This document shows, piece by piece, positions 21,771-38,869 of a stretch of 43,498 bases of DNA. Under the pieces are notes generated by a model. That model searched no databases, was not told the origin of the DNA, and worked only from the letters and a program-made list of their open reading frames with translations. How positions within the stretch are numbered: the stretch's first letter is position 1; every line of letters starts with the position of its first letter. Both the position numbers and the translations under genes were made by a program. The DNA is from Patescibacteria group bacterium (GTDB lineage: Bacteria > Patescibacteriota > Patescibacteriia > UBA2591 > UBA6264): the NCBI GenBank assembly GCA_018896315.1, contig JAHIMV010000081.1, positions 1-43,498 of the forward strand, in the 5' to 3' direction.

Positions 21771-21833
21771 ATTGTTATCCTGTTTTTAATTGTAGTTTAT
21801 TTTTAAAATAATATAATAAAAATATATCTGCCC

Positions 21834-24479: not shown

Positions 24480-24604
24480 AAATGCGATACCAATATACTA
24501 ATACATACGAATTATACGAATAATTTGAAGTATTAGTGTGTCGTAATGTTAAATTTGTATTATTAGTATCAATTTGTATATTAGCATTGATTTAGTTCTT
24601 TGTA
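24480..24604. repeat. family D copy 3 (tuf-rpsJ spacer)
   Basis: gcgataccaatatactaatacatacgaattatacgaat ... attagtatcaatttgtatattagcattgat. Confidence 0.8.
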
Positions 24605-24964
24605 ATGACGAAAGAAAAAATTAAGACACAAAAATCAATTAAAAAAGAAGAGGCTAAATACCAGCCGAGAATTCGGATTAAAATTAAATCATATGACCAT
24701 CGAGTTATTGATGAAGCTTTAAAAGGAATTATTGAAGCGATTTCTCGGTCTGGCGCCAAGGTAATTGGCCCGATTTTTCTCCCTACAGAGAAAAAAAAAT
24801 ATACGGTCCTTCGTTCCTCTTTTGTTCATAAAGATTCTCGAGATCAGTTTGAGAAAAGAATTCACAAGAGGTTGCTTGATATTACTGATTTTAATCCCCA
24901 AACATTAGAAACTCTAACTGGCCTTCATTTGCCAGCAGGAGTAGATGTGGAAATTAAAATGTAA
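24605..24964 (+). CDS. rpsJ: 30S ribosomal protein S10 (with ~20-aa Lys-rich N-terminal extension)
   Basis: IRIKIKSYDHRVIDEA..PTEKKKYTVLRS.FVHKDSRDQFE.R.HKRLLDI. First gene of the S10 cluster, after tuf. Confidence 0.9.
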   Translation: MTKEKIKTQKSIKKEEAKYQPRIRIKIKSYDHRVIDEALKGIIEAISRSGAKVIGPIFLPTEKKKYTVLRSSFVHKDSRDQFEKRIHKRLLDITDFNPQTLETLTGLHLPAGVDVEIKM

Positions 24965-24974
24965 AGAGTTTTTT

Positions 24975-25018
24975 CAAAAATTTTAAAGTTGAGATTAGCG
25001 AAACTGCAGAAATTTTTG
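24975..25018 (+). repeat. H1 hairpin module, copy after the rpsJ stop
   Basis: caaaaattt ..agcgaa.. aaatttttg (9-bp stem). Preceded by taa-agag and followed by ttagaaaaccttt plus core A. Confidence 0.7.
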
Positions 25019-25031
25019 TTAGAAAACCTTT

Positions 25032-25089
25032 ACCCTGTTAAATAATTTCGCTTTTAGCGAAATTGCCGCAAGGCGGCATTTAACAGGGT
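25032..25089 (+). repeat. family A Y-shaped 58-nt core, copy a (rpsJ-rplC spacer)
   Basis: accctgttaaat[aatttcgc-tttt-agcgaaatt][gccgc-aag-gcggc]atttaacagggt: a 12-bp outer stem enclosing two hairpins. Confidence 0.9.
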
Positions 25090-25337
25090 TCTCGAAAATC
25101 TAACAAAATTTTCATCGTTCCCTAAACTCGAAAATTTTGAGATTTTCGGAATAATTTGATCAGGGGAAAGCAAGGTTAAAAGTGAACTCTTAAGTTTCAT
25201 AAGAGTTATTGTTTAATCAAACTTTTTCTTAATTTTGAGGTTCAAAATTCTCTAAAGAGATGACAATTTAGTCAAATTTTTCACAGCCAGGCTTAAGGTC
25301 AGAGAAATTTGGTCTCAAACCTGGTTTTTTAATACCT

Positions 25338-25955
25338 ATGAAATTCATTCTTGGGAAAAAAATAGAAATGTCCCAAATTTTTAAAGGGGACAAGGTTATT
25401 CCGGTAACAAAAATTCAAGCCGGCCCTTGTTTGATTACTCAAATTAAAACACAAGAAAAAGACGGTTATGAGGCTATTCAGATTGGATTTGCTAAGAAAA
25501 GAAAGAATACTAAATCATTATTAGGTCATTTAAAAAAGGGTTTAGCTGACAAAGAGTATAATCGATATTTAAAAGAATTTAAAACAGAAAGGGGTGATTT
25601 AAAAATTGGAGATAAGATAAAAGTTGATATTTTTCAACCTGGAGATAAAATAAAGATTGTTGGTACCTCTAAAGGAAAAGGGTTTCAAGGAGTAGTTAAG
25701 CGACATGGTTTTCATGGAGCATCAGCTACACATGGAACCAAAGATCAAGAAAGAATGCCTGGTTCAATTGGAGCCACTGGTCCTGCCAGAGTTTTTAAAG
25801 GAAAAAAAATGCCTGGAAGAATGGGAGGCAAACAAGTTACAGTTAAAATTTTAGAGATTATAGAGGTTAATCCAGAAGAAAATTTATTATTAGTCAAAGG
25901 ATCTGTTCCTGGGGCAAGGAACTCATTATTAGAAATTACTCAAGTAAAATATTAA
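25338..25955 (+). CDS. rplC: 50S ribosomal protein L3
   Basis: ILGKKIEMSQIF.., GKGFQGVVKRHGF, conserved cluster position. Confidence 0.93.
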   Translation: MKFILGKKIEMSQIFKGDKVIPVTKIQAGPCLITQIKTQEKDGYEAIQIGFAKKRKNTKSLLGHLKKGLADKEYNRYLKEFKTERGDLKIGDKIKVDIFQPGDKIKIVGTSKGKGFQGVVKRHGFHGASATHGTKDQERMPGSIGATGPARVFKGKKMPGRMGGKQVTVKILEIIEVNPEENLLLVKGSVPGARNSLLEITQVKY

Positions 25956-26650
25956 TGTTAAAAGTTTCAGTTTACAATCAAGAAGGAAAAGTAATTGGAC
26001 AAGAAGAATTAGATCCTGAAATTTTTGGATTGGAAAGTAAACCTGATTTAATTCATCAAACCGTAGTATCTCTTATGGCTAATCAGCGCCATGCTTTTGC
26101 TCATGTTAAAACTCGTTCAGAAGTACGGGGAGGAGGAAGAAAACCTTGGAGACAAAAGGGGACTGGTCGGGCTCGAGCAGGCACAATTCGTTCACCTTTG
26201 TGGCGGGGCGGTGGAATCACTTTTGGTCCAGATAAAAATAGGAATTATTCTCAGAAAATTAATAGAAAAGCTAAAAGACAAGTGCTTTTTATGTGTCTTT
26301 CTGATAAAGTTAAAGAAGAAAGAATGTATGTTTTGGATAAGTTAGAAATGCCTGAAATCAAAACCAAAAAGTTTACTCAAATTTTATTTAAGTTGATTCC
26401 TGAATATAAAGACAAGACTTCCGCCAAAGGCGGATCCGCCTCCGGCGGAAAAAAAATCCTTTTTGGCTTGCCTGAGAAGGATTTAAATATAATTAGATCT
26501 GTACGAAATATTAAAGGTTTAAAAACTATGCCGATTATTAATTTAAATATTTTAGACTGTTTAAAGGCAGACTATTTATTAACCACTTTAGACGGTGTAA
26601 AAAAAATTCAAGAACATTTTAAAATAGATGGCTCACCATTAAATAAATAA
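25955..26650 (+). CDS. rplD: 50S ribosomal protein L4
   Basis: RSEVRGGGRKPWRQKGTGRARAGTIRSPLWRGGG. ATG overlaps the rplC stop by 1 nt. Contains a GC-rich hairpin pair in frame at 26421..26448. Confidence 0.93.
   Translation: MLKVSVYNQEGKVIGQEELDPEIFGLESKPDLIHQTVVSLMANQRHAFAHVKTRSEVRGGGRKPWRQKGTGRARAGTIRSPLWRGGGITFGPDKNRNYSQKINRKAKRQVLFMCLSDKVKEERMYVLDKLEMPEIKTKKFTQILFKLIPEYKDKTSAKGGSASGGKKILFGLPEKDLNIIRSVRNIKGLKTMPIINLNILDCLKADYLLTTLDGVKKIQEHFKIDGSPLNK
26421..26448 (+). repeat. GC-rich double-hairpin motif inside rplD
   Basis: ccgcc-aaa-ggcgg at ccgcc-tcc-ggcgg, translated SAKGGSASGG. GC-rich island in an AT-rich gene. Confidence 0.75.
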
Positions 26651-26735
26651 AACATGGGAATTTTCACCCAGTTTAGAAATTTAATGGGGTAAAAGAAGTA
26701 ATTGATTGAAAATTAGATATATTAAAAATACTTTT

Positions 26736-27218
26736 ATGGCAGAAAAAAGACTTAAAAAATTTCTAACGGGGTTTAAAAGAAAAATAAAGCCAGCGGTTAA
26801 GAAAGAAGAAGTTAAAAAGGAAAAAGTGGAAAAGGCAAAGGAAATAGAAAAAGATGAGAAAATAGAAGATAAAAAGCAACAGAAATCTAAAACAGAAATA
26901 AAAAAAACTGTTAAAAAATTAATACAAAGACAAGGAGTTGATATCTCAATTTTACTAAGACCAATTATTACAGAAAAAGCAACTGACCAAGAGGTCAAGG
27001 GATGCTATATTTTTGAAGTTAATTCAAAGGCAAACAAAATTTCAATAAAAAAAGCAATTGAACAAATTTACGGAGTCAAACCCTTAAGAGTAAATATTAT
27101 TCGAGTACGTGGGAAAAAAGTAAGATATGGGCGTTCAACAGGTAAAACAAAGGCATGGAAAAAAGCTTTAGTTTTTCTAAAAAAAGGAGATAAGCTGCAG
27201 TTTGTGCAGAAATCCTAA
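26736..27218 (+). CDS. rplW: 50S ribosomal protein L23 with ~70-aa Lys/Glu-rich N-terminal extension
   Basis: L23 core ILLRPIITEKA..FEV...ANK..IK.A.E..YGVKP..VN begins about residue 75. First ATG is at 26736 (track start 26706 is TTG). Confidence 0.85.
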   Translation: MAEKRLKKFLTGFKRKIKPAVKKEEVKKEKVEKAKEIEKDEKIEDKKQQKSKTEIKKTVKKLIQRQGVDISILLRPIITEKATDQEVKGCYIFEVNSKANKISIKKAIEQIYGVKPLRVNIIRVRGKKVRYGRSTGKTKAWKKALVFLKKGDKLQFVQKS

Positions 27219-27395
27219 ATAATAAATAACAAATAACAAACAATATCCAATGACCAAAATCCAAATGACCAAAACAAATACGTTTAGAATTTAGAATTTT
27301 GCCCCGGCCTTCGTAGCCGAAGCTACTTCGGCGGAGTAGGCAATTTGTTTAGAATTTGGTGCTTGGTGTTTGGAATTTGGAGCGAAGCGACTATT
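27219..27395. repeat. structured spacer (rplW-rplB) ending in the gagcgaagcga..ATG motif
   Basis: ccaaaatccaaatgaccaaaacaaat versus atttgtttagaatttggtgcttggtgtttggaatttgg arms, GC hairpins in the centre. 3' end ggagcgaagcgactattATG resembles 830..849. Confidence 0.55.
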
Positions 27396-28238
27396 ATGCT
27401 TAAAATATCTAAACCAACAACTCCAGGTAGGAGAAAAATGAGCGTGGTTGATACTAGTGGACTATCAAAAGTGAGACCATTAAAGAAATTGGTTAGTATA
27501 AGAAAACAAAAAGCAGGCCGAAGCAAAGGAAAGATTACTGTTCGTCACCAAGGCGGGGGAGAAAAAAGATTTTACAGAAAGATTGATTTTAGGCAAGATA
27601 AATTTGATATCCCGGCGAAAGTTAAAACATTGGAATATGATCCAAATCGTTCTGCTTGGATTGCTTTATTACATTATACGGACGGAGAAAAGAGATATAT
27701 ACTTGCTCCGCACAGTCTTAAAGTAGGTGATGAGATTATTAGTTCAAAAAAGAAGATTGATGCAAAATTAGGCCATCGCATGCCTTTAAAATACATTCCA
27801 GTGGGCATGGCCATTCACAATATAGAATTAATGCCAAATCAAGGTGGAAAAATTGTTCGTTCGGCTGGTAATTCAGCTATTTTAATGGTTGTGAATGATG
27901 GGTTTGCGCAAATTAAACTGCCCTCATCTGAAAGAAGGCTTGTTAAAGAAGATTGTTTAGCTAGTTGCGGTCAGGTTAGTAATCCAGAGTGGCGATTTAT
28001 TCGCTGGGGAAAAGCTGGTAGGATGCGTCATAGAGGAATTAGACCTTCAGTTCGCGGTAAAGCAATGGCCCCAGTGGCTCATCCACACGGTGGAGGAGAG
28101 GGTAATTCACCTATTGGTTTAAAAAATCCTAAAACCCCTTGGGGAAAACCAGCCTTAGGGCCAAAGACTAGAAAAAAGAAAAAATGGACTAATAAATATA
28201 TTGTCCAAAGAAGAATTAAAAAAAGAAGAAAAAAGTAA
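27396..28238 (+). CDS. rplB: 50S ribosomal protein L2
   Basis: MLKISKPTTPGRRKMS.., HPHGGGEG. The track ORF start 27345 lies inside the upstream repeat, so the internal ATG at 27396 was chosen. Confidence 0.93.
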   Translation: MLKISKPTTPGRRKMSVVDTSGLSKVRPLKKLVSIRKQKAGRSKGKITVRHQGGGEKRFYRKIDFRQDKFDIPAKVKTLEYDPNRSAWIALLHYTDGEKRYILAPHSLKVGDEIISSKKKIDAKLGHRMPLKYIPVGMAIHNIELMPNQGGKIVRSAGNSAILMVVNDGFAQIKLPSSERRLVKEDCLASCGQVSNPEWRFIRWGKAGRMRHRGIRPSVRGKAMAPVAHPHGGGEGNSPIGLKNPKTPWGKPALGPKTRKKKKWTNKYIVQRRIKKRRKK

Positions 28239-28248
28239 AGGGCTTTCT

Positions 28249-28282
28249 TAAAAATTTCAAGTTGTAGACGTAGAAATTTTTA
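28249..28282 (+). repeat. H1 hairpin module, copy after the rplB stop
   Basis: taaaaatttc .. gaaattttta (10-bp stem, different sequence, same position). Preceded by taa-agggcttt. Confidence 0.7.
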
Positions 28283-28295
28283 TTAGAAAACCTTT

Positions 28296-28353
28296 ACCCT
28301 GTTAAATAATTTGTAAAGCAAATTAAAAATCAAAAATTTTTGTTTAACAGGGT
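28296..28353 (+). repeat. family A core, copy b (rplB-rpsS spacer), divergent inner hairpins
   Basis: Same outer stem accctgttaaa..tttaacagggt. Both inner hairpins are replaced by different self-complementary sequences (aatttg-taaag-caaatt; aaaaat-caa-aaattttt). Confidence 0.85.
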
Positions 28354-28383
28354 GCTCGAAAATTAATAAATTAATTTTTTCGC
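28354..28383 (+). promoter_or_regulatory. leader module L1 (gctc + AT palindrome + ttcgc-ATG) before rpsS
   Basis: gctcgaaaattaataaattaattttttcgc then ATG. No SD-like purine tract. Confidence 0.8.
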
Positions 28384-28680
28384 ATGGGAAGAAGTTTGAA
28401 AAAAGGACCTTGGGTTGACCCAAGATTACTCAAAAAAATTTCCAATTTAAAAAGAGGAGATAAAACAATAATTAAAACCTGGTCACGTAATTCAACAATT
28501 ACTCCGGAAATGATTGGTTTTACAATTGGGGTCCATAATGGTAAGACACATTTATCAGTATTTATTGTTGAAAATATGGTCGGGCACAAGCTTGGAGAAT
28601 TTTCTCCGACCAGAAAATTTGTCAAACATGGAGGTAAGATGCAAAGAGGATTAGAAGCAGCCGTTAAGAAATCAAAATAA
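28384..28680 (+). CDS. rpsS: 30S ribosomal protein S19
   Basis: [34 protein letters not shown]. Confidence 0.95.
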
Positions 28681-28883
28681 TCCCTCACCCTTTGGCGATA
28701 ATACTTCGCATTAGTGCTTCGCATTTTTAAACAAGTGTATTTAAAATTAAAAATAAAAAATCAAAATGCAAAATTTAGGTATCAAAAATTTTTCTTGAAA
28801 ATTTTTGATGATTGTATTTTATTTAATTTTAACATTTTTAATTGTCATTTTGATATTTGATATTTACATTTTACATTTATATT
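28681..28883. repeat. AT-rich long-hairpin spacer (rpsS-rplV), E-like
   Basis: Central 11-bp hairpin atcaaaaattt/aaatttttgat (28781..28809) flanked by an A-rich left arm and a quasi-complementary T-rich right arm (..ttttaattgtcattttgatattt). Confidence 0.6.
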
Positions 28884-29438
28884 ATGCAAGTAAAAGCTAA
28901 AGGAAAATATTTAAGAATATCCAGTAAAAAGATGAGGCTGGTAACAGACCTAATTAGAGGAATGGACTTAAAAGATGCCTTAGATTCTTTAAATTTTGTT
29001 CCTAAAAAGTCAGCCCGTTTTATTAACAAGGTTTTAAAGTCAGCTTTAGCTAATGCAGAACATAATTTTGATTTAAAAAAAGAAAATCTTTTTATTAAAG
29101 AAATTTTTGTTAATGAAGGGCCTACTCTTAAGAGATGGAGGCCAAGAGCTTTTGGTCGGGCCGGACAGGTTCGTAAAAGAAGCTCACATTTAGAAATTAT
29201 TTTAGGGGAAAAAATTCCTAGTTCAGAGACCAGATCTGTTAAAACAAAAATTAAAGAACCAATAATTGAATCTATTTCTAAAGATAAGATTGAAGAAAAA
29301 AAGCCGGTGGAAGAAACAGAAGAAGAAACGTTAAATCGACTTCAAGGAAAACATCAATCTAAACCAAATTATTACCAAAAAAAGGGTAAAGGGTTTAGAG
29401 GGAGTTTAAAAAAGATTTTTAGAAGAAAAACTATATAA
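28884..29438 (+). CDS. rplV: 50S ribosomal protein L22 with ~70-aa C-terminal extension
   Basis: MQVKAKGKYLRISSKKMRLV.DLIRG..V..AL..L.F, RA.GRA..VRKR.SH. Internal ATG at 28884 chosen over the track start 28857. Confidence 0.88.
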   Translation: MQVKAKGKYLRISSKKMRLVTDLIRGMDLKDALDSLNFVPKKSARFINKVLKSALANAEHNFDLKKENLFIKEIFVNEGPTLKRWRPRAFGRAGQVRKRSSHLEIILGEKIPSSETRSVKTKIKEPIIESISKDKIEEKKPVEETEEETLNRLQGKHQSKPNYYQKKGKGFRGSLKKIFRRKTI

Positions 29439-29448
29439 AGAGCTTTGT

Positions 29449-29481
29449 CTGAAATTTGGAGAACTAGCGAACAAATTTCAG
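29449..29481 (+). repeat. H1 hairpin module, copy after the rplV stop
   Basis: ctgaaatttg ..agcgaa.. caaatttcag (10-bp stem). Preceded by taa-agagctttgt. Confidence 0.7.
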
Positions 29482-29494
29482 TAACAAAACCTTT

Positions 29495-29622
29495 ACCCAG
29501 CACTTATTTTGCGAAGCAAAAACAAAATTTTATATATAACAAGATAAGATAGGTTTATTTCTCGCGAAAGAGCGTTAAAACACTCTTTCGCTAAGACTCA
29601 CTTGGCAGAATAAGTGCTGGGT
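29495..29622 (+). repeat. family B element, copy 2 (rplV-rpsC spacer), diverged
   Basis: Same termini (acccagcacttatt / aataagtgctgggt) and the same inner gcgaaagag hairpin, with several substitutions and indels. Confidence 0.85.
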
Positions 29623-29687
29623 GCTCAAATTTGTAACGAAATTTCCTTCGTTACTTCGTAACTCGTAAATTTAGACAAATTTAGCAT
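29623..29687 (+). promoter_or_regulatory. leader module L2 variant before rpsC
   Basis: gctcaaatttgtaacgaaatttccttcgttac...gacaaatttagcat then ATG. 5' caaatttg and 3' caaattt co-vary relative to the other copies. Confidence 0.7.
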
Positions 29688-30332
29688 ATGGGAAGAAAAG
29701 TAAATCCAAAAATTTTCCGTATTCCCTTAATCAGAGATTGGGAATCAAAGTGGTTTGCAAAAAAGCACGAATTTAAACGATTCTTAAAAGAGGATATACA
29801 GATTAGAGAGTTTTTATCAAAAAGACTAAAGAATTGTGGTATTTCTAATATTAGTATTGAAAGGTTGGCTAATATTATAAGAATCAGCATATCCACTGGT
29901 AAGCCTGGATTAATTATTGGTCGAGGAGGTCTTGATATTGAAAAATTAAAAAAAGAATTAAAAGTTTTTGTCAGCGATGGAATTGTTTTAGAAGTTAATG
30001 TTATTGAAGAGAAAAAACCAATGCTTTCCGCTGATGTGATTTTAGAAGGAGCAATTGCTGATTTAGAAAAAAGGTTTCCTTTCCGTCGAGTGATGAAAAA
30101 AGTTATTAGACAGGCTAAAACAAGCGAGGCCAAAGGAATGAAAATCATCCTTAGCGGACGTTTGGGGGGAGTTGAGATTTCTCGATCAGAAAAATTGATT
30201 TGGGGGAACTTACCGCTTCATACTTTGCGAGCAGACATTGATTATGCTCGTGGCACAGCCGCAACAACATATGGTTCAATCGGAGTTAAAATCTGGGTTT
30301 ATCGAGGAGAAAAATTTAGTAATTCTGTCTGA
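29688..30332 (+). CDS. rpsC: 30S ribosomal protein S3
   Basis: MGRKVNPKIFRI..W.SKWFA, KH domain GKPGLIIGRGG, GRLGG.EI.R.E. Confidence 0.95.
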   Translation: MGRKVNPKIFRIPLIRDWESKWFAKKHEFKRFLKEDIQIREFLSKRLKNCGISNISIERLANIIRISISTGKPGLIIGRGGLDIEKLKKELKVFVSDGIVLEVNVIEEKKPMLSADVILEGAIADLEKRFPFRRVMKKVIRQAKTSEAKGMKIILSGRLGGVEISRSEKLIWGNLPLHTLRADIDYARGTAATTYGSIGVKIWVYRGEKFSNSV

Positions 30333-30378
30333 TATTTTTAAGTCCAGAGGACGTAGAAAATTCAGCTACAGAATTGCT

Positions 30379-30508
30379 ACCCAGCACTTATTTTGCGAAA
30401 CAGAAACAAAATTTTATATATATAACAAGGTAAAATAAGTTTATTTTTCGCGAAAGAGCGTTAAAACACTCTTTCGCCAAGACATACCTAGCAAAATAAG
30501 TGCTGGGT
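30379..30508 (+). repeat. family B element, copy 3 (rpsC-rplP spacer)
   Basis: Reads identically to 7747..7876. Confidence 0.9.
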
Positions 30509-30539
30509 GCTCAAAAATTAATAAATTAATTTTTTTCGC
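30509..30539 (+). promoter_or_regulatory. leader module L1 before rplP
   Basis: gctcaaaaattaataaattaatttttttcgc then ATG. Confidence 0.8.
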
Positions 30540-30959: not shown

Positions 30960-30962
30960 AAA

Positions 30963-31148
30963 ATGAAGACAGAGGAACTTAAACCAAAAACAAAAAAAGA
31001 ACTGGAAAGATTGTTAGAAGATTCTAGGGAAAAACTACGTAATCTACATTTTGATATTCAAATGAAGCAGTCAAAAAATGTAAGGGAAATAAGAAAAGCA
31101 AAGAAATTAATTGCTAAAATACTTACATTTATTAATCAAAAAAATTAA
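30963..31148 (+). CDS. rpmC: 50S ribosomal protein L29
   Basis: 61 aa, LKPKTKKELERLLEDSREKLRNLHF, conserved position between rplP and rpsQ. Confidence 0.85.
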   Translation: MKTEELKPKTKKELERLLEDSREKLRNLHFDIQMKQSKNVREIRKAKKLIAKILTFINQKN

Positions 31149-31149
31149 T

Positions 31150-31401
31150 ATGGCCAAAAAAAGATTTCAAGGAGTAGTGACTAGTGATAAGATGGATAAA
31201 ACCATTGTTGTTATGATAAATCGGACAAAGGTGCATCCTATCTATAAAAAGAGATATCAGGTTAGTAAAAAATATAAAGTTCATGATCAGAAAAATGAAG
31301 CTAAAATTGGTGATCAAGTTACTTTTGAGGAATGCAGACCTTTGTCAAAAGATAAAAAGTGGAGATTAATAACGATTTTGTCTGAAAAAGCGAGCTCGTA
31401 G
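31150..31401 (+). CDS. rpsQ: 30S ribosomal protein S17
   Basis: MAKKRFQGVVTSDKMDKTIVV......HPIYKKR...SKKYKVHD..N.A.IGD.V...E.RPLSK.K.W. ATG at 31150 (the track start 31111 overlaps rpmC). Confidence 0.92.
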   Translation: MAKKRFQGVVTSDKMDKTIVVMINRTKVHPIYKKRYQVSKKYKVHDQKNEAKIGDQVTFEECRPLSKDKKWRLITILSEKASS

Positions 31402-31430
31402 AGCGAAGGTTTTTTGGTAACAAAATCGTT

Positions 31431-31488
31431 ACCCTGTTAAATAATTTCGCTAAAAGCGAAATTGCCGCAGGGCGGCATTTAACAGGGT
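31431..31488 (+). repeat. family A core, copy c (rpsQ-rplN spacer)
   Basis: As copy a, but the loop of hairpin 1 is aaaa instead of tttt and hairpin 2 is gccgc-agg-gcggc. Confidence 0.9.
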
Positions 31489-31518
31489 GCTCAAAAATTA
31501 ATAAATTAATTTTTTCGC
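31489..31518 (+). promoter_or_regulatory. leader module L1 before rplN
   Basis: gctcaaaaattaataaattaattttttcgc then ATG. aaaaattaat/attaattttt is a 10-bp self-complement. Confidence 0.8.
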
Positions 31519-31890: not shown

Positions 31891-31949
31891 TGATTTTATC
31901 TGATAAAATCGAGGCCGCCGGGCGAAGATTTTTCAGCTACAAAATCGCT

Positions 31950-32007
31950 ACCCTGTTAAATAATTTCGCTTTTAGCGAAATTGCCGCAAAGCGGCATTTA
32001 ACAGGGT
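31950..32007 (+). repeat. family A core, copy d (rplN-rplX spacer)
   Basis: accctgttaaataatttcgcttttagcgaaattgccgcaaagcggcatttaacagggt. Confidence 0.9.
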
Positions 32008-32037
32008 GCTCAAAAATTAATAAATTAATTTTTTCGC
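32008..32037 (+). promoter_or_regulatory. leader module L1 before rplX
   Basis: Identical to the rplN copy. Confidence 0.8.
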
Positions 32038-32346: not shown

Positions 32347-32356
32347 AGGGCTTTGT

Positions 32357-32392
32357 CTAAATTTTGGAGTCCGAAGGGCGAACAAAATTTGG
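32357..32392 (+). repeat. H1 hairpin module, copy after the rplX stop
   Basis: ctaaattttg ..ggcgaa.. caaaatttgg. Preceded by taa-agggctttgt. Confidence 0.7.
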
Positions 32393-32405
32393 TAACAAAA
32401 CCTTT

Positions 32406-32463
32406 ACCCTGTTAAATAATTTCGCTTTTAGCGAAATTGCCGCAGGGCGGCATTTAACAGGGT
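32406..32463 (+). repeat. family A core, copy e (rplX-rplE spacer)
   Basis: accctgttaaataatttcgcttttagcgaaattgccgcagggcggcatttaacagggt. Confidence 0.9.
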
Positions 32464-32520
32464 GCTCATAATTGTAACGAAATTTATTTCGTTACGAGTA
32501 ACTTATAAATTTCGATAATT
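32464..32520 (+). promoter_or_regulatory. leader module L2 before rplE
   Basis: gctCATAATTgtaacgaaatttatttcgttacgagtaacttataaatttcgatAATTATG. Confidence 0.75.
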
Positions 32521-33069
32521 ATGGCAGATTTAAAGCAAATATATTTAAAAAAAGTTGTTCCAGAATTAGTCAAAAAATTTGATTATCAGAACAAGATGGC
32601 TGTTCCTAAGATAGAAAAAATTGTTGTTAATTCTGGATTAAGTCGTGGAACTACAGAGAAAAATTCTAAATATGTTGACATGGTTAGTCAGACAATTGCT
32701 AAAATTACAGGACAACAGCCAGTTAAAAATTTAGCAAAAAAATCAATTGCTGGTTTTAAAATTAGAGAAGGAATGCCAGTTGGCGTAAGTACAACTCTGC
32801 GAGGCCCGAAAATGTATAATTTTCTAGATAAATTAATTAATATTGCTTTACCAAGAATAAGAGATTTTAGAGGACTAAAAAAACAGAGTATTGATCAACA
32901 GGGTAATTTATCAATCGGTTTTAAAGAGCAGGTAGTTTTTCCAGAGATTAATCAGGAAAATCTTGAATCAACCCATGGTTTACAAGTAGTGATTACAACA
33001 ACAACTCAAAGTAAAGAAAAGGCATTAGAATTATTTAAATTATTAGGATTTCCCTTTAGAAAAGAATAA
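32521..33069 (+). CDS. rplE: 50S ribosomal protein L5
   Basis: LKQIYLKKVVPEL.KKF.Y.N.M.VPKIEKIVVN.G.., LP.IRDFRGL. Confidence 0.95.
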   Translation: MADLKQIYLKKVVPELVKKFDYQNKMAVPKIEKIVVNSGLSRGTTEKNSKYVDMVSQTIAKITGQQPVKNLAKKSIAGFKIREGMPVGVSTTLRGPKMYNFLDKLINIALPRIRDFRGLKKQSIDQQGNLSIGFKEQVVFPEINQENLESTHGLQVVITTTTQSKEKALELFKLLGFPFRKE

Positions 33070-33078
33070 ATTTGACAT

Positions 33079-33264
33079 ATGGCAACTAAAGGACAAGTAG
33101 TTAAATCAAATAAAGAGCCTAAATATCGGACACGAAAAGTACGACGTTGTTGGCGTTGCGGAAGAAGACATGGCTATATGAGAGAATTTGATGTTTGTCG
33201 CATTTGCTTTAGAGAATTAGCAACTAAGGGGGCAATCCCAGGTATAAGAAAATCATCTTGGTAA
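33079..33264 (+). CDS. rpsN: 30S ribosomal protein S14, type Z (zinc form)
   Basis: 61 aa with [23 protein letters not shown]. Confidence 0.93.
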
Positions 33265-33402
33265 GATAAAAATTCAAATATCAAAAATTAAAAATCAAAA
33301 TGACATATCAAAATCTAAAATTAATAAATAATAAAAATTATCCCGAAGGGATACCTAAATTTTGCATTTTGCATTTTGCATTTTGCATTTAACGAAACGT
33401 TT
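33265..33402. repeat. AT-rich long-hairpin spacer (rpsN-rpsH), E-like
   Basis: Left arm atcaaaaattaaaaatcaaaatgac.., central tatccc-gaa-gggata hairpin (33339..33353), right arm four tandem ttttgca units. Confidence 0.6.
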
Positions 33403-33807
33403 ATGACTGATCCAATTGCCGACATGCTAACAAGAGTTCGTAATGCTTTGGCTATTAAAAAACCAGAGATAGTTTTGCCTTATTCCAAGGTTAAGTTTAA
33501 TATTGCTAAAGTATTAGAAAAAGAAAAATTGATTGAAAAAGTGGAAATAATTGATGCGGCGAAAAGTAAAACAGGATTTAAGCAGTTAAAAATTAAATTA
33601 AAGTACAATGAAGACAATCAACCAGTTATTGGTACTTTAAAAAGAATCAGCAGCCCAGGTCAACGTATTTATGTTAAAAAAGATAAAATTCCCAAAGTTT
33701 TAAATGGTTTGGGAATGAATATTTTATCTACCTCTAAAGGCTTAATGACCGGACAAGAAGCTAGAGAGAAGGGTTTAGGAGGAGAATTAATTTGTGAAAT
33801 ATGGTAA
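33403..33807 (+). CDS. rpsH: 30S ribosomal protein S8
   Basis: MTDPIADMLTRVRNAL... Internal ATG at 33403 chosen; the track start 33376 lies in the ttttgca tandem repeat. Confidence 0.93.
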   Translation: MTDPIADMLTRVRNALAIKKPEIVLPYSKVKFNIAKVLEKEKLIEKVEIIDAAKSKTGFKQLKIKLKYNEDNQPVIGTLKRISSPGQRIYVKKDKIPKVLNGLGMNILSTSKGLMTGQEAREKGLGGELICEIW

Positions 33808-34074
33808 CGCGATACCAATATACGAATGCATGCGAATGATACGAATAAAGCACACGAATAGTAAAACATAATGCTAATCTACGAATGTATGCGAATGCTA
33901 CGAATTACGAATAAAGCGCGCAAATTATTATTCGCGTCATTCGCGTGAATTAGCGTATTAGTGTCGCTACTTTTAACACAACATGAATGCGCCCACACGA
34001 ATATTAGTATAATCAGTATCCATTCGTATATTAGCATCGATTAAATTAATTCGTATATTAGCATCGATATTATT
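33808..34074. repeat. family D copy 4 (rpsH-rplF spacer), expanded, 267 nt
   Basis: cgcgataccaatatacgaatgcatgcgaatgatacgaat ... attcgtatattagcatcgat duplicated in tandem at the 3' end. Many acgaat/attcg units. Confidence 0.8.
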
Positions 34075-34623
34075 ATGTCAAGAATTGGTAAAAAAATTAT
34101 TTCTGTTCCAGAAAATGTTGAAATAAAAGTACAAGATCAACAGATTTTAGTCAAAGGGCCAAAAGGCGAATTAAAGCAATTTTTGCCAGATTTTGTTAAA
34201 ATTGAAATAAAAGATAATCAATTGAAAGTTTTAGTTAAAAATCCTGAAGAAAAAGAACAAAAAGCTTGTTGGGGGACGTTTGCTAGTCTGATTTCTAATA
34301 TGATTCAAGGGGTAACCCAAGGATTTAAAAAAAAACTAGAATTAGTAGGGGTGGGTTATCGGGCAGAAAAACAAGGAGATAAGATTATTCTTAATGTTGG
34401 TTTTTCCCATCCAGTAGAATATTTAGTTCCTAAAAATATTGAAGCAGACGTTGAACAAAGAACAATTATTATTCGGGGATTTGATAAACAGTTAGTAGGA
34501 GAAACAGCAGCACAGATTAGGAAGTTTAGAAAACCAGAACCATATAAGGGAAAGGGAATTAAATATTCCGATGAAGTAATTCGTCGAAAAGCTGGCAAAA
34601 AGGTTGCTGGAGCAGGAACATAG
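34075..34623 (+). CDS. rplF: 50S ribosomal protein L6
   Basis: MSRIGKKIISVPENVEI......I.VKGPKGEL, GVGYRA, PEPYKGKGI.Y. Confidence 0.95.
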   Translation: MSRIGKKIISVPENVEIKVQDQQILVKGPKGELKQFLPDFVKIEIKDNQLKVLVKNPEEKEQKACWGTFASLISNMIQGVTQGFKKKLELVGVGYRAEKQGDKIILNVGFSHPVEYLVPKNIEADVEQRTIIIRGFDKQLVGETAAQIRKFRKPEPYKGKGIKYSDEVIRRKAGKKVAGAGT

Positions 34624-34911
34624 AAAAATCAAAAATCAAAAATCAAAAATCAAAATTATTTTATTAAAAAATCAAAAAAGAACAAGTTCCTCTCAAGCGA
34701 GAGTAAAATGGAAAACGTAAAAAGGAATTGCTGATTGCCGATTGTTGATTGTTTGGAAAGATAGACAAAGGTTTCAATTAGCAATTAACAATTAAGACTA
34801 GTTTTTAATTTTTACATTTTAATTTGTCATTTTACATTTTGATGGTTCGACTTTGCTCACCATCAATCCTGAGCGTAGTCGAAGGATTGATATTTAAATT
34901 TTACATTTTCT
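34624..34911 (+). repeat. family E element, copy 1 (rplF-rplR spacer), carrying a nested 50-nt hairpin element
   Basis: (aaaatc)n left arm, centre gaacaagttcctctcaagcgagag..aattgctgattgccgattg..caattagcaattaacaatt, right arm tttacattttaatttgtcattttacattttga. Confidence 0.85.
34841..34890 (+). repeat. 50-nt hairpin element nested in family E copy 1
   Basis: gatggttcgactttgctcaccatcaatcctgagcgtagtcgaaggattga. Absent from the otherwise collinear copy 2 (..ccattttga|tatttaaatt..). ttga occurs on both sides. Confidence 0.9.
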
Positions 34912-35277
34912 ATGGCTGAAGTAAAAAAACAATTGCAGAGAGAAAAAAGACATCGCCGAGTTCGCGCAAAAATTAATGGGACAAGTGAATGTCCAAGACT
35001 CTGTGTTTTTAGAAGCAATAAATATATTTATGTGCAGTTGATTGATGATCAAAAAGGGATAACTTTATTATCTGTTACAGATAATAAACCAAAAACAAAA
35101 TCTAAAACTAAAGAATCTTCAAATATAAATAGCGCCTTAGAGGTTGGAAAAATTTTAGCAAAAAAAGCTATTGAAAAGAAAATTAAAAAAATAGTTTTTG
35201 ATCGTGGAGGATATAAGTATCATGGTCGAGTTAAGGCAATAGCGGAGGGAGCAAGGCAAGGTGGACTTAAGTTCTAA
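34912..35277 (+). CDS. rplR: 50S ribosomal protein L18
   Basis: [49 protein letters not shown]. Confidence 0.95.
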
Positions 35278-35499
35278 ATCAAAAATCAAAAATCAAAAAT
35301 CAAAATTATTTCATTAGAAAACTAAATAAGAACAAGTTCCTCGCAAGCGAGAGTAAAATGGAAAACATAAAAAAGAATTGCTGATTATTCGGAAAGATAT
35401 ACAAAAATGTCAATTAGCAATTAACAATTAAGATTAGTTTTTAATTTTTACATTTTAATTTGTCATTTTCCATTTTGATATTTAAATTTTACATTTTCT
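35278..35499 (+). repeat. family E element, copy 2 (rplR-rpsE spacer)
   Basis: Collinear with copy 1 apart from a short internal deletion and absence of the nested hairpin. Ends ..tatttaaattttacattttctATG exactly as copy 1 does. Confidence 0.85.
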
Positions 35500-35988
35500 A
35501 TGACAAAAGAAAAAAGAATAAAACGTAGGGAGTTGCCAGGAGTCAAAATTGAGCCAGAGTTTATTCAGCAATTAGTTGATTTAGCTAGAGTAACTAGAGT
35601 TGTTAAGGGAGGAAAACGTTTAAGTTTTCGTGCCTGTATGGTTATTGGAAATAAAAAAGGAGAAATTGGAATGGGATTAGCTAAAGGGACAGATGTCGCC
35701 GGAGCTATTCATAAAGCAGTTCGTAAGGCAAATAAAAATTTAATCAAAGTAACAATTGTTAATGATACTATCCCTCATTGGGTTAGAGTTAAGTATGGAG
35801 CGGCTCAAGTTTTATTACGACCAGCCAGAAAAGGCCATGGAATTGTCGCTGGAGGAGCTGTTAGAACAGTTTTATCTTTATCAGGTATTAGAAATGTTAC
35901 CGCTAAAATTCTGGGGTCAAAGAGTAAAATGAACAATGTTAGAGCAACGATTAAAGCTTTACAGTCATTAAAAATTCCTAAGGTTTAA
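35500..35988 (+). CDS. rpsE: 30S ribosomal protein S5
   Basis: V.L.RVTRVVKGGKR.SFRA..V.GN..G..G.G.AK, RPA..G.GI.AGG.VR. Confidence 0.95.
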   Translation: MTKEKRIKRRELPGVKIEPEFIQQLVDLARVTRVVKGGKRLSFRACMVIGNKKGEIGMGLAKGTDVAGAIHKAVRKANKNLIKVTIVNDTIPHWVRVKYGAAQVLLRPARKGHGIVAGGAVRTVLSLSGIRNVTAKILGSKSKMNNVRATIKALQSLKIPKV

Positions 35989-35992
35989 AATT

Positions 35993-36472
35993 ATGACAGT
36001 TAAATTATCTAATTTAAAACCAGGGTCTAAGGCAAGACGCCGCTCAAGAAGAGTTGGCAGGGGAAATAATGCTTCTGATCCAGGCACTTATTCTGGCCGG
36101 GGCATGAAGGGACAAAGATCAAGATCTGGCGGAAAAAAGGGTCTTAAAATTAGAGGCCTAAGAAGAAACTTGAGAAGCATGCCAAAATTAAAGGGATTTA
36201 ATAAAAGAAAGTCTTTAAGCATTAAACCAATAAGTTTGAAAGATTTAGAAAACAAATTCAAAGAAAATGAAATTGTTGATCTTGCTAAATTGGTTAAGAG
36301 TGGTTTAATTAAAAAGAAAGACCGTCGAGTTAAAATTTTAGCTCAAGGGAAGATAACAAAAAAATTAACTATTAAAGCTCATCAATTTTCAAAAGCGGTG
36401 GAAAAGGCTGTTAAAAAAGCAGGGGGAAAGATAGTGATTTTATCTGATAAAATAGAGCTTAAAAAGCGATAA
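35993..36472 (+). CDS. rplO: 50S ribosomal protein L15 (last 12 codons lie in a repeat cassette)
   Basis: LSNLKPG..ARR...RVGRG...G.....GRG.KGQ..RSG. Follows rpsE directly, with no rpmD. Confidence 0.93.
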   Translation: MTVKLSNLKPGSKARRRSRRVGRGNNASDPGTYSGRGMKGQRSRSGGKKGLKIRGLRRNLRSMPKLKGFNKRKSLSIKPISLKDLENKFKENEIVDLAKLVKSGLIKKKDRRVKILAQGKITKKLTIKAHQFSKAVEKAVKKAGGKIVILSDKIELKKR

Positions 36473-36493
36473 TTTTTCAGCTACAAAATCGCT

Positions 36494-36551
36494 ACCCTGT
36501 TAAATAATTTCGCTTTTAGCGAAATTGCCACAGGGTGGCATTTAACAGGGT
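36494..36551 (+). repeat. family A core, copy f (rplO-secY spacer)
   Basis: Hairpin 2 is gccac-agg-gtggc, a double compensatory change relative to gccgc..gcggc. Confidence 0.9.
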
Positions 36552-36583
36552 GCTCGAAAATTAATTAACATTAACTTTCTCGC
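36552..36583 (+). promoter_or_regulatory. leader module L1 variant before secY
   Basis: gctcgaaaattaattaacattaactttctcgc then ATG. Still an imperfect AT palindrome. Confidence 0.7.
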
Positions 36584-37861
36584 ATGTGGGGAAAAATAAG
36601 ACAACTTTGGCAAATTAAAGATTTAAGAAACAGTCTTCTTTTTGTTATGGCCATGTTGATTATTTTTCGTATTGCCGCACATATTCCAGTCCCGGGAGTA
36701 AACTTAGATAATTTAAAAGATTTTTTCTCGCGCAATGAGATGTTGGGAATGTTAAATATCCTTTCTGGAGGAGCTATGTCTAATTTTTCCTTAGTGGCAA
36801 TGGGTATTGCTCCTTATATCACTGCTTCAATTATTATGCAACTCTTAACTATGATTGTTCCCCGCTTAGAAGAACTTAGCAAAGAAGGAGCAAGTGGTTA
36901 TCAAAAGATTAATCAATATTCTCGTTTATTAACAATTCCTTTGGCTATTCTACAGTCTTATGGAATGATTATGATTTTTAGCCAATCTAGCCAGCCAATT
37001 CTGGGTTCTTTATCAACTTTTGAATTAGCCAATGTTTTAATGGTTATGACTGCTGGGACAGTTTTTTTAATGTGGTTAGGAGAATTAATTACTGAAAAGA
37101 AAATTGGCAATGGTATTTCTTTGCTTATTTTTGCTGGAATTGTTGAACGAGTTCCTATTTCTATTCAGCAAACGATTGCTACTTTTTCTGCAGATCAAAT
37201 TATTAATTTTTTAGTTTTAGTAGGTTTAGCTTTAGTGACAATTGCTGGAGTGGTAATTATTACAGAAGGTCAGCGCAATATTCCAGTTACTTATGCCCGA
37301 CGCATTCGTGGTCATCGTATGTATGGCGGAACAGATACTTATTTACCGATGAAGGTTAATCAGGCGGGCATGATTCCTATTATTTTTGCCATTTCTATTG
37401 TTCTTTTTCCAGGTTTAATAGGGCAACTTTTAGCCAGATCAGGTTCAACTTTTATAGCTAAGTTTGGTCAAATTTTAATGGGAATTACTCAAAATCAACT
37501 TATTTATGGTTTGTTATATTTTACTTTAGTGGTCGCTTTTACTTATTTTTATACTAGTATTATTTTTCATCCAAAACAAATAGCTGACAATTTACAAAAG
37601 CAAGGAGGTTTTGTTCCTGGTTTAAGACCGGGCGAGCCAACAGCTAATTACTTGTCCACAGTTAGTGTTCGTATTATGCTTGCCGGAGCTTTGTCTTTAG
37701 GGCTCATTGCTGTTTTGCCCATTATTACCCAAAATGTTTTTAGACTTTCTACTTTTGTTGTTGGCGGAGCAGCTATTTTAATTGTCGTGAGCGTGGTTTT
37801 AGAGTCTGTTAAACAAATTCAAGCCCAGATTGCAATGCATGAATATGAGGGTTTAGGTTAG
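36584..37861 (+). CDS. secY: preprotein translocase subunit SecY
   Basis: 10-TM protein, LGI.PYITASII.QLL, GEL.TE.GIGNGISL.IFAGI. Confidence 0.96.
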   Translation: MWGKIRQLWQIKDLRNSLLFVMAMLIIFRIAAHIPVPGVNLDNLKDFFSRNEMLGMLNILSGGAMSNFSLVAMGIAPYITASIIMQLLTMIVPRLEELSKEGASGYQKINQYSRLLTIPLAILQSYGMIMIFSQSSQPILGSLSTFELANVLMVMTAGTVFLMWLGELITEKKIGNGISLLIFAGIVERVPISIQQTIATFSADQIINFLVLVGLALVTIAGVVIITEGQRNIPVTYARRIRGHRMYGGTDTYLPMKVNQAGMIPIIFAISIVLFPGLIGQLLARSGSTFIAKFGQILMGITQNQLIYGLLYFTLVVAFTYFYTSIIFHPKQIADNLQKQGGFVPGLRPGEPTANYLSTVSVRIMLAGALSLGLIAVLPIITQNVFRLSTFVVGGAAILIVVSVVLESVKQIQAQIAMHEYEGLG

Positions 37862-38127
37862 AAAAATCAAAAATTAAATATCAAAAATCAAAATTATTTT
37901 ATTAGAAAATTAAATAGGAACAAGTTCCTCGCAAGCGAGAGCAAAATGGAAAACATAAAAAGGAATTGCTGATTGCTGATTGCCGATTGTTGATTGTTTG
38001 GAAAGATAGACAAAGGTTTCAATTAGCAATTAATAGCTAAGAATAGTTTTTAATTTTTACATTTTAATTTGTCATTTTCCATTTTGATATTTACATTTTG
38101 CATTTGACCGAGTGTTAACGAGGAAAT
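37862..38127 (+). repeat. family E element, copy 3 (secY-adk spacer)
   Basis: Collinear with copies 1 and 2 through ..gtcattttccattttgatattt, then diverges into an SD-containing adk leader. Confidence 0.85.
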
Positions 38128-38799
38128 ATGATTAAAAAGAATTTTAATTTAATTATTCTGGGACCAGCTGGTTCAGGCAAGGGAACACAAGCTCATTTGT
38201 TAATCAAAGAGTTTAGTATGAAAACAATTGAGATGGGAGAATTGGTCAGAGGAGCAGCCAAGGAAAAAACAAAACAGGCTAAATTAATTGCTTGGATGCA
38301 TGACGTGGGCATGCATTTTTCAGATGATTTTATTTTTAATCTTTTTGAAAAAAACGTTAAAAAGCTTAATAAAAAATATAAGCTTTTAGTTGACGGATAT
38401 CCAAGAACAGCTGGACAAGCTTGGGATTTGCAAAGAATTTTAAAAAAATATTATAAAAACAGGCCAAGCTTAGCCATTTGGATCAATGTTAGCGATAAAG
38501 AATCTTTAAAAAGATTGCTGAGTCGAGCCCTTTGTTCTAAATGTGGCAAGATTTTTCCTAATCGAAAAATTAAAAAATGCCCAGATTGCGGCGGTTTAGT
38601 TAAAGTCAGGGGTTATGATAAAGACAAAAAAGCAATTCAAAAAAGATTAGATTGGTTTCATGATCATGTAGTTCCAGCTATTGAGTTTTATAAACAGCGT
38701 AAAATGTTAGTTCAGGTTAATGGAGAGCAGTCAGTAGAAAAAGTTTTTAAAGAAACTTTAAGAAAAATAAATCGATACCAATATACGAATGCATACTAA
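38128..38799 (+). CDS. adk: adenylate kinase (Zn LID); last 9 codons lie in a family D repeat
   Basis: ILGPAGSGKGTQA, VDGYPRT, LID CSKCGK..CPDCGG. GAGGA Shine-Dalgarno sequence upstream. Confidence 0.9.
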   Translation: MIKKNFNLIILGPAGSGKGTQAHLLIKEFSMKTIEMGELVRGAAKEKTKQAKLIAWMHDVGMHFSDDFIFNLFEKNVKKLNKKYKLLVDGYPRTAGQAWDLQRILKKYYKNRPSLAIWINVSDKESLKRLLSRALCSKCGKIFPNRKIKKCPDCGGLVKVRGYDKDKKAIQKRLDWFHDHVVPAIEFYKQRKMLVQVNGEQSVEKVFKETLRKINRYQYTNAY

Positions 38800-38869
38800 T
38801 TATACTAATCATTATTTGAATCATTTTTATTTGTATTATTAGTATGAATTTGTATATTAGCATTGCATT
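38773..38869. repeat. family D copy 5 (adk 3' end to the map start)
   Basis: cgataccaatatacgaatgcatactaa is read as adk codons RYQYTNAY-stop. Right arm attagtatgaatttgtatattagcattgc. Confidence 0.8.

Follow-up and report, generated by a model that had tools for sequence, protein, structure and literature searches.

Small Palindromic Repeat Cassettes, Probably Mobile, Fill Gene Junctions of the S10-spc Operon in a Patescibacteria Group Bacterium

Gene Junctions of the S10-spc Operon

The S10-spc cluster of ribosomal protein (r-protein) genes is the most conserved and most compact gene array of bacteria and forms the basis of phylogenomics in the candidate phyla radiation (CPR). In the window studied here, i.e., the whole stretch of 43,498 nucleotides (nt) that was analyzed (W; contig JAHIMV010000081.1 of a Patescibacteria group bacterium), this operon extends from the tuf-rpsJ spacer to the adk-map spacer (24480-38869), and its long spacers are filled by short structured repeat cassettes, which very probably are selfish DNA. 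Comparison loci from other genomes are designated by L-numbers.

The window has a G+C content of about 32% and carries all of its genes on the plus strand. The genes tuf and map as well as all 20 r-protein genes are confirmed by Pfam, secY was named by orthology to Pfam-annotated genes of relatives, and adk (38128-38799) was named by its position, as ADK-family genes follow secY in L142 and L143. The gene rpmD is not present between rpsE and rplO, which is usual for CPR. Homologs of the S3 protein assign the organism to Patescibacteria/CPR, while an exact look-up gave no record of the S3 protein of the window itself.

A previous sequence-only reading of this DNA had listed the spacer lengths, every one of which was reproduced exactly by the recomputed gene ends, as were the gene identities and repeat families. 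The compact junctions are rplC/rplD (1-nt overlap), rplP-rpmC (3 nt), rpmC-rpsQ (1 nt), rplE-rpsN (9 nt) and rpsE-rplO (4 nt). Long spacers separate tuf-rpsJ (125 nt), rpsJ-rplC (373 nt), rplD-rplW (85 nt), rplW-rplB (177 nt), rplB-rpsS (145 nt), rpsS-rplV (203 nt), rplV-rpsC (249 nt), rpsC-rplP (207 nt), rpsQ-rplN (117 nt), rplN-rplX (147 nt), rplX-rplE (174 nt), rpsN-rpsH (138 nt), rpsH-rplF (267 nt), rplF-rplR (288 nt), rplR-rpsE (222 nt), rplO-secY (111 nt), secY-adk (266 nt) and adk-map (70 nt).

Repeat Families and Cassette Architecture

The repeat families were defined by repeat finding and by BLAST of all spacers against the window. Family A comprises seven cores, each of exactly 58 nt, in which ACCCTGTTAAAT is followed by two hairpins and ATTTAACAGGGT. 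Family B consists of three cores of 128-130 nt, starting with ACCCAGCACTTATT and ending with AATAAGTGCTGGGT. Family D elements have terminal inverted repeats (5′ CGATACCAATATACGAAT, 3′ ATTCGTATATTAGCATC), as do family E elements, the ends of which are periodic A-tracts. In addition, three modules recur, namely a 5′ hairpin containing ..TTTGTCTGAWA.. (H1) and two A/U-rich, weakly structured 3′ tails, T1 (GCTCAAAAATTAATAAATTAATTTTTTCGC) and T2, both of which directly abut the ATG. The main cassette is composed of H1, a core between ACCC...GGGT arms and a T1 or T2 tail ending at the next ATG. Each family is represented by 3-7 copies in the 43 kb, and the copies in the window are 65-97% identical.

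The cassette spacers fold far better than shuffled sequences (z -3.5 to -6.3) and do so equally well on both strands. A scan of the window against Rfam (E<=1) returned four tRNAs and one chance hit, with no match to a cassette, by which known ribozymes, group I introns and r-protein leaders were ruled out. Features of cis-regulatory leaders or structured RNAs are missing as well: the cassettes are absent in the relative L001, contain 1.4% G-T pairs, show symmetric loops and have no Rfam hit. They are, on the other hand, short, non-coding and multi-copy, with terminal inverted repeats in families D and E and ACCC..GGGT arms on the cores, as is typical of MITEs (miniature inverted-repeat transposable elements).

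The features of the operon are as follows (a vertical order along the window; junctions are written with a slash).

24480..24594, unstranded: tuf/rpsJ, family D element with both terminal inverted repeats; the 12 native nt next to the ATG are retained.
24965..25153, plus strand: rpsJ/rplC, cassette of an H1-like hairpin, family A core (25032-25089) and variant tail; filled here, empty in L001.
25154..25337, plus strand: native rpsJ-rplC leader, non-repeat, recognized by its conservation among relatives.
26425..26455, unstranded: in-frame double GC hairpin (27 nt) in rplD, adding nine residues (SAKGGSASG) that are absent in both relatives compared.
27219..27395, unstranded: rplW/rplB, insert of A-rich periodic arms around a GC hairpin; 4 nt in L001.
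28239..28383, plus strand: rplB/rpsS, cassette of an H1 variant, degenerate family A core (28296-28353) and T1 (28354-28383) fused to the ATG.
28681..28883, unstranded: rpsS/rplV, E-like palindromic element with 65-86% BLAST matches to family E and to rpsN/rpsH.
29439..29687, plus strand: rplV/rpsC, cassette of H1, family B core (29495-29622) and T2 (29623-29687) fused to the ATG.
30318..30539, plus strand: rpsC/rplP, cassette of H1 starting within rpsC, family B core (30379-30508) and T1 (30509-30539); empty site in L001.
31372..31518, plus strand: rpsQ/rplN, cassette of H1 starting within rpsQ, family A core (31431-31488) and T1 (31489-31518); S17 tail TILSEKASS.
31891..32037, plus strand: rplN/rplX, cassette of H1, family A core (31950-32007) and T1 (32008-32037); fold z -5.3.
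32347..32520, plus strand: rplX/rplE, cassette of H1, family A core (32406-32463) and T2 (32464-32520).
33265..33402, unstranded: rpsN/rpsH, E-like palindromic element found by BLAST of the spacers.
33808..34074, unstranded: rpsH/rplF, two nested or tandem family D copies; 4 nt in L001.
34624..34911, unstranded: rplF/rplR, family E element with a nested 45-nt palindrome (~34843-34887).
35278..35499, unstranded: rplR/rpsE, family E element; 4 nt in L001.
36435..36583, plus strand: rplO/secY, cassette of H1 starting within rplO (12-residue L15 tail), family A core (36494-36551) and a T1 variant.
37862..38127, unstranded: secY/adk, family E element.
38769..38869, unstranded: adk/map, family D element starting inside adk and encoding the last ~9 Adk residues and the stop codon.

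The proposal that a small number of structured, modular families occupy the spacers from end to end is supported. The rpsJ/rplC insertion, which follows immediately after the rpsJ TAA, accounts for only the first 189 of the 373 nt. The other 184 nt are the native leader (6191-6374 in L001, 336 to ~515 in L004), which is conserved in all relatives and 85% identical on the nucleotide level across W, L001 and L004, although their r-proteins are only 71-87% identical. Its stems have undergone compensatory changes (CCAGG..CCTGG vs. CCGGG..CCCGG); it has no Rfam hit and ends in a hairpin and a U-run just upstream of the rplC ATG. This leader is a candidate for an r-protein attenuator in an unusual position. 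The A-rich arm of the rplW/rplB insert shares about 30-35 nt with positions 753-790 at 83% identity.

The anchoring of the repeats between stop and start codons, also proposed before, is real and recurs outside the operon (metG/cvpA) and in distant CPR genomes, but it is not strict at the stop side: in rpsC, rpsQ, rplO and adk the repeat starts before the stop codon, so that it supplies the C-termini of S3, S17, L15 and Adk. At rpsC/rplP, for instance, H1 encodes the S3 C-terminus SNSV and the stop codon.

Empty and Filled Sites in Related Genomes

The closest relative found (L001/L002) has 87% amino acid (aa) identity to W in its r-proteins and is syntenic from prf to secY. At 11 junctions measuring 85-288 nt in the window its spacers have only 3-16 nt, e.g., 4 nt at rplV/rpsC, 8 nt at rpsC/rplP, 4 nt at rpsH/rplF, 13 nt at rplF/rplR and 4 nt at rplR/rpsE. 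Five further relatives are filled at differing combinations of junctions. Correspondingly, the summed spacers amount to 3045 nt in W, 612 nt in L001, 2030 nt in L004, 2295 nt in L144, 2432 nt in L142 and 1537 nt in L143, and to 849 nt in L126, where only 14 junctions were summed. This pattern of presence and absence points to mobile DNA and not to a conserved host system. An apparent polymorphism between L004 and L005 was traced to an N-run from scaffolding.

At the junctions rplV/rpsC and rpsC/rplP, L126, the most distant relative (65% aa identity), shares both H1 and the tail (T2 or T1) with W. The core at both sites, however, belongs to family A in L126, with the copy at rplV/rpsC being inverted, whereas it belongs to family B in W. 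The core is therefore a unit that can be exchanged and inverted independently of the shell. Moreover, W and L126 have the element-encoded S3 terminus GEKFSNSV∗ in common, whereas the closer L001 and L004 keep a native S3 tail. The occurrence of one cassette at one junction in non-sister lineages requires site-specific re-insertion or lateral spread by recombination.

The otherwise empty rplX/rplE spacer of L126 (16 nt, 3217-3232) opens with AGAGCTT, the bases which open H1 after the TAA in filled sites, and may be the footprint of a lost cassette. In L143, a relative with 73% identity, the rpsQ/rplN gap (9792-10491) comprises 700 nt of repeated units; it consists of repeat arrays only, and neither an endonuclease gene nor any other credible open reading frame (ORF) was found in it. 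A scan of metagenomes for T1 yielded one further relative only.

Copies Outside the Operon

The repeat families are not confined to the region 24480-38869; copies are located elsewhere in the window too, even within ORFs.

5354..5441, unstranded: junction of hyp452 and the rsmI-like gene, filled by family D.
7685..7936, plus strand: metG/cvpA, complete cassette of H1, family B core (7747-7876) and T2-like tail, from stop codon to ATG.
8438-8503: family D copy in cvpA/nrdD.
16486..16566, minus strand: nrdG, family E end and 45-nt palindrome, in frame, ~27 aa.
21771..22030, plus strand: junction of the MBL-fold gene and the adk-like gene, insert of a core with a GIY-like 3′ arm (..GAGGCGGGGT) and T2 (21979-22030) fused to the ATG; 51 nt in L001.
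39896..39953, minus strand: ruvX, lone inverted family A core, in frame, adding 20 aa that are absent in L004.
42837-42979: family D copy after the TrwB-like gene.

The 45-nt palindrome in nrdG is the one that is also nested in the rplF/rplR element. By our own classification of the BLAST table, 17 of 23 junctions are occupied in the operon compared to 10 of 20 in the rest of the window, which is not a significant difference (Fisher p=0.13).

The Family A Core Across Phyla

A search for the stem CCCTGTTAAAT-N25-55-ATTTAACAGGG in the species representatives of GTDB identified at least 119 loci, whereas by our estimate 22 fixed bases should produce about 1-2 chance matches. The matches listed (L006-L124), to which the following figures refer, are distributed over many classes of Patescibacteria, Desulfobacterales, WOR-3, Omnitrophota, Armatimonadota, Acidobacteriota and others, often in several copies per genome. 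Their interiors are nearly all different (122 of 128 distinct), and 88 of the 128 form a pair of neighboring hairpins. Instead of such a pair, the copies in WOR-3 have another conserved interior of about 40 nt.

The hairpins contain 1158 Watson-Crick but only 17 G-T pairs and a mean of 0.6 unpaired non-loop bases per core. Loops occur as often as their complements (TTT 23 and AAA 20, TTC 19 and GAA 15), and relative to flanking co-directional genes 11 cores have the same and 13 the opposite orientation. About 10% of the copies lie in long ORFs, and many others are less than 15 nt away from genes on either side. Base-pair statistics, loop symmetry and the missing orientation bias thus indicate a DNA palindrome and not a strand-specific RNA, and the core is a DNA-type three-way junction repeat occurring across phyla. 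A hammerhead or other ribozyme was rejected, since there are no conserved junction nucleotides. The search of viral contigs gave zero matches and hence no sign of a phage vector. We know of no counterpart of the cross-phylum outer stem of 11-15 bp, CCCTGTTAAAT. The motif TGTTAAAT, which we take to equal the E. coli dif site in the outer part of its XerD arm, is a speculative Xer/dif lead.

A Miniature GIY-YIG Nuclease Cassette in Relatives

Only one relative of the cassettes with matching ends and an ORF was found, and it encodes a GIY-YIG nuclease rather than a transposase. In L004 the core slot at rplW/rplB (2450-2745) is taken by an ORF of 70 aa, bounded by ACCCAGCCCTCTATGC and GCTTAGAGGGCTGGGT, within a shell formed by an H1′-type hairpin and by a T1 tail reaching up to the ATG of rplB. 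Six such arm pairs occur in the 9-kb operon of L004; the ORF is present in one of them, whereas the other five, with arms 72-88 nt apart, lack it. By our reading, no more than about 10 nt are common to the ORF and the ORF-less interiors. An ORF-bearing cassette with ORF-less copies between the same arms nearby corresponds to the pattern of an autonomous element and its miniature derivatives.

The miniature GIY-YIG family has 102 homologs, typically of 72-74 aa, and all of those carrying a source name are from CPR. The nearest solved structures are the UPF0213 protein BH0048 (E=0.008) and, weakly, I-TevI (E=0.39). Besides rplW/rplB in L004, the gene was found in the contexts rnc/rpsP (L127, 1482-1750, and L138), rpmF/nusB (L137, 1489-1775) and after tsf (L140, 1485-1778). 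In L004, L127, L137 and L140 the ORFs, of 70-75 aa, are framed by inverted arms of the ACCCCGCCCTCTA type. In four of the five contexts the arms are the same, the 5′ arm containing the ATG of the ORF and the 3′ arm its TAG, and in four of the five the tail ends exactly at the ATG of the next gene. All five contexts are translation operons, in which the ORF is co-oriented with its neighbors. In these relatives, but not in the window, the ORF thus has the position between conserved genes and the patchy presence of a free-standing homing endonuclease gene.

Transcription and Translation Context

Promoter-like sites occur in the cassettes at chance level, so that cassette-borne promoters are unsupported. 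Terminator-like sites are few on the sense strand; their excess is mostly antisense or within coding sequences. Together this fits obligatory read-through. Native internal junctions are A/T-rich upstream of the ATG and, as judged by eye, lack a Shine-Dalgarno motif.

Origin of the Cassettes

Very probably the spacers are selfish DNA: mobile elements of several families, all small, nested, palindromic and non-coding, invaded a formerly compact S10-spc operon. The insertions seem to be recent and related to the tiny GIY-YIG nuclease cassette, and they do not seem to be a conserved host system for processing or translating the operon. That their parent was a GIY-YIG element moving in a homing-like way is quite possible and is put forward tentatively. 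Such a GIY-YIG nuclease, or another trans-acting enzyme, would cut the DNA, and repair would copy the cassette into the break. Homing-like copying would explain why the same cassette, at the same junction and with the same S3 tail, is found in the distant lineage L126. In a genome with spacers of 3-10 nt only insertions at the stop-start boundary would survive. Surviving cassettes would have no strong sense terminator and would bring a stop codon when clipping the 3′ end of a gene, both of which were observed. The A/U-rich, weakly structured tail would let downstream genes without a Shine-Dalgarno sequence still initiate, while the upstream frame stays closed. The cassettes would be co-transcribed as stable hairpins, and any effect on mRNA stability, processing or coupling would be a by-product.

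A wider generalization, held with slightly more reserve than the GIY-YIG parentage, is a CPR-wide class of "operon-riding" selfish cassettes. These would carry a GIY-YIG gene or a double-hairpin surrogate in ACCC...GGGT arms, a stop-supplying 5′ hairpin and an ATG-ending tail, always in the orientation of the operon. They would home to stop-start junctions, mainly of translation operons, use the read-through of the host and give the downstream gene its start context, and the family A core would belong to the cross-phylum three-way-junction repeat family.

Several observations weigh against the selfish-element interpretation or against its GIY-YIG part. Mobility was deduced from comparisons and never directly observed. 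No GIY-YIG gene and no transposase gene was found in W, L001, L126 or L142-L144, and a search of 0.8 Mb of loci for an ORF enclosed by family A arms far apart met ordinary neighbor genes only. Nothing but ACCC/GGGT and the GCTC flank is common to the GIY-YIG arms and the arms of families A and B in the window, for which reason the GIY-YIG link of the window's own cores is inferred. All GIY-YIG contexts being translation operons suggests either targeting or a benefit, which are not separable here. A TAA flanks the rpsJ/rplC insert on both sides, but this insert only; at the other pairs of filled and empty sites a target-site duplication is unrecognizable and the native spacers of 3-16 nt are simply gone. 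The fusion of T1 or T2 to the ATG leaves zero nucleotides of them, and such an exact fusion is not obviously predicted by simple random insertion and selection. Finally, every whole cassette that was read by eye (about 28) has the orientation of transcription, which indicates either a functional constraint on the RNA or translation level or strand-specific insertion.

A different mover is the alternative that survives best, although we consider it rather doubtful. It differs from the favored explanation in the enzyme only: a single-strand transposase of the repetitive extragenic palindrome (REP)-associated or IS200/IS605 type, an insertion sequence (IS) transposase acting on the terminal repeats of D and E, or a structure-specific or Xer-like recombinase of the host would move the cassettes, and the GIY-YIG ORF would be a nested parasite. 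The conventional terminal inverted repeats of families D and E speak for it, and so does the small overlap between the L004 ORF and the ORF-less interiors. In addition, the family A core occurs in phyla where the miniature GIY-YIG gene was not seen, and a GIY-YIG ORF lies within 8 kb at only 3 of the 119 listed family A loci. However, neither a transposase gene nor a REP-associated tyrosine transposase (RAYT) gene is present in the window, and no transposase-encoding parent with the same ends was found. REPs are palindromes of 20-40 bp with a GTAG or CGTC tag at one end (PMC3733652), whereas the cores run from ACCC to GGGT without a consistent GTAG/CGTC tag, so that they differ from REPs and bacterial interspersed mosaic elements (BIMEs). 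The start and stop codons of the GIY-YIG ORF are, moreover, built into the arms, which implies that ORF and arms evolve as one unit.

According to the sequence-only reading, the cassettes formed an organized intercistronic system of the host rather than MITE litter, serving as punctuation for RNA processing, as a means of stop-start reinitiation without Shine-Dalgarno sequences, or for stabilization. We regard this as very unlikely. It would account for the strong structure of the cassettes, their co-orientation, the tails that end exactly at the ATG even in distant genomes, the few sense-strand terminators and the native internal genes without obvious Shine-Dalgarno sites. Against it stands that cassettes are missing from nearly all junctions of L001, the nearest relative, and that occupancy differs from junction to junction among seven related genomes. 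Members of these families also occupy non-ribosomal junctions and occur in frame within ORFs, the occupancy of the operon junctions is not significantly higher, and cores are inverted or exchanged in an unchanged shell. The hairpins also have the statistics of DNA, being strand-symmetric and almost devoid of G-U pairs, and their antisense strands fold equally well. Effects of the cassettes on processing, reinitiation or stabilization may exist as side effects, not as the reason for their presence. What remains of the idea of organization are the tail-ATG fusion and the co-orientation, for which selection alone does not account, as properties of the element and not of the host operon.

An assembly or binning artifact, with repeats mis-joined into the operon, is effectively refuted: no supporting point was found, the copies have diverged to 65-97% identity, every flanking ORF is intact, and equivalent cassettes are present in independent assemblies of relatives from NCBI, ENA and JGI (L004/L005, L125/L126).

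Other Features of the Window

Upstream of the operon are located tpiA, fba, four tRNA genes, dnaJ, metG, cvpA, nrdD, nrdG, htrA, prf, comEC, an MBL-fold gene and an adk-like gene. Downstream follow ruvX, an mraY-like gene and the gene of a TrwB-like ATPase. The nrdD gene (8535-16115) is an ORF of 2526 aa, in which the NRDD domain is split by inteins into five stretches. The inteins account for three Intein_splicing and four LAGLIDADG_3 matches, and their N-termini appear as DNA direct repeats D16/D17.

There are two genes of the adenylate kinase type, one encoding a 363-aa ADK/AAA_17 protein (22031-23122, upstream of tuf) and one the 223-aa Adk between secY and map (38128-38799). The latter gene is missing in L004 and L144, where the secY/map spacer has 28 nt. 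The r-protein L23 has a Lys/Glu-rich N-terminal extension of about 70 aa (26736-26950), its Pfam domain covering residues 72-156, and L22 a Lys/Glu-rich C-terminal extension of about 75 aa (29200-29438), its domain covering residues 5-107. The 183-nt gap between tRNA-Thr(TGT) and tRNA-Trp (2473-2655) has neither a match to a repeat family nor an Rfam hit. A small repeat family F is common to the junctions fba/hyp115 (1718-1782), rsmI-like/metG (6133-6171) and nrdD/nrdG (16130-16250), where it is partly inverted.

Implications

With these elements the S10-spc cluster has taken up mobile DNA at 16 of 21 junctions, about 2.4 kb in all, and S3, S17 and L15 have their C-termini rewritten. This shows reduced CPR genomes to be permissive to such parasites and calls for caution in gene calling, in operon-based binning and in screens for "novel structured RNA" in CPR genomes. 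If the link to the miniature GIY-YIG gene is true, the cassettes are among the smallest ORF-bearing mobile units known to us (about 250 bp between the arms) and provide natural portable pre-ATG leaders for organisms with little use of Shine-Dalgarno sequences. The three-way-junction core of family A, found across phyla, poses a recognition problem of its own.

Comparison With Known Systems

No description of the cassettes in CPR was found in the searchable literature, either by sequence string or by topic, and the elements appear to be undescribed there. The stem of family A is reminiscent of integron attC sites, as it is a folded imperfect palindrome and its GTTAAAT and ATTTAAC fit the consensus GTTRRRY / RYYYAAC. 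An attC site was nevertheless rejected: attC sites have the order RYYYAAC ... GTTRRRY and form arrays beside an integrase, whereas family A has the two motifs in inverted order (GTTAAAT ... ATTTAAC) and dispersed copies, and the window contains no integrase.

Very small, nesting hairpin units which tolerate insertion into genes are known as small dispersed repeats of cyanobacteria and as mitochondrial double-hairpin elements. The repeats of the window are equally tiny, nested and tolerated in genes, with differing sequences and hosts. A related mitochondrial example is the GC-cluster family of yeast (PMC4478555).

Prokaryotic MITEs and small palindromic repeats like REP/BIME of E. coli, ERIC of enterobacteria, Correia elements of Neisseria and BOX/RUP of pneumococci (reviewed in PMC10969869 and PMC2229807) share with the cassettes that they are short, non-coding, multi-copy, hairpin-forming, modular and read through in operons. 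The cassettes differ from them in that no parent IS or transposase was found for them and no consistent target-site duplication was seen. Furthermore, they replace the whole stop-to-start spacer, end exactly at the ATG and have an exchangeable core capable of carrying a GIY-YIG gene.

By their behavior only, the repeats resemble the palindromic elements of Rickettsia through their in-frame inserts in ruvX, rplD and nrdG and the new C-termini of S3, S17, L15 and Adk. The Rickettsia elements, as Ogata and colleagues are said to have described in 2000, insert in frame into coding genes of a reduced genome and add peptide segments. In contrast to these, the repeats of the window belong to another phylum and have another sequence; most of their copies are found at the boundaries of genes, they are built in a modular or nested way, and they are linked to a nuclease cassette.

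The Seg proteins of T-even phages are free-standing GIY-YIG homing endonucleases. GIY-YIG ORFs also occur in intergenic regions of organelles (PMC7487136). The GIY-YIG cassette of CPR is like free-standing homing genes in being wedged between conserved genes, co-oriented, patchy and found at the same junction in non-sister lineages. Unlike Seg, its protein comprises only 70-75 aa, i.e., a catalytic core without a DNA-binding domain, and its gene is enclosed in inverted arms, which include the start and the stop codon of the gene, and accompanied by ORF-less multi-copy derivatives.

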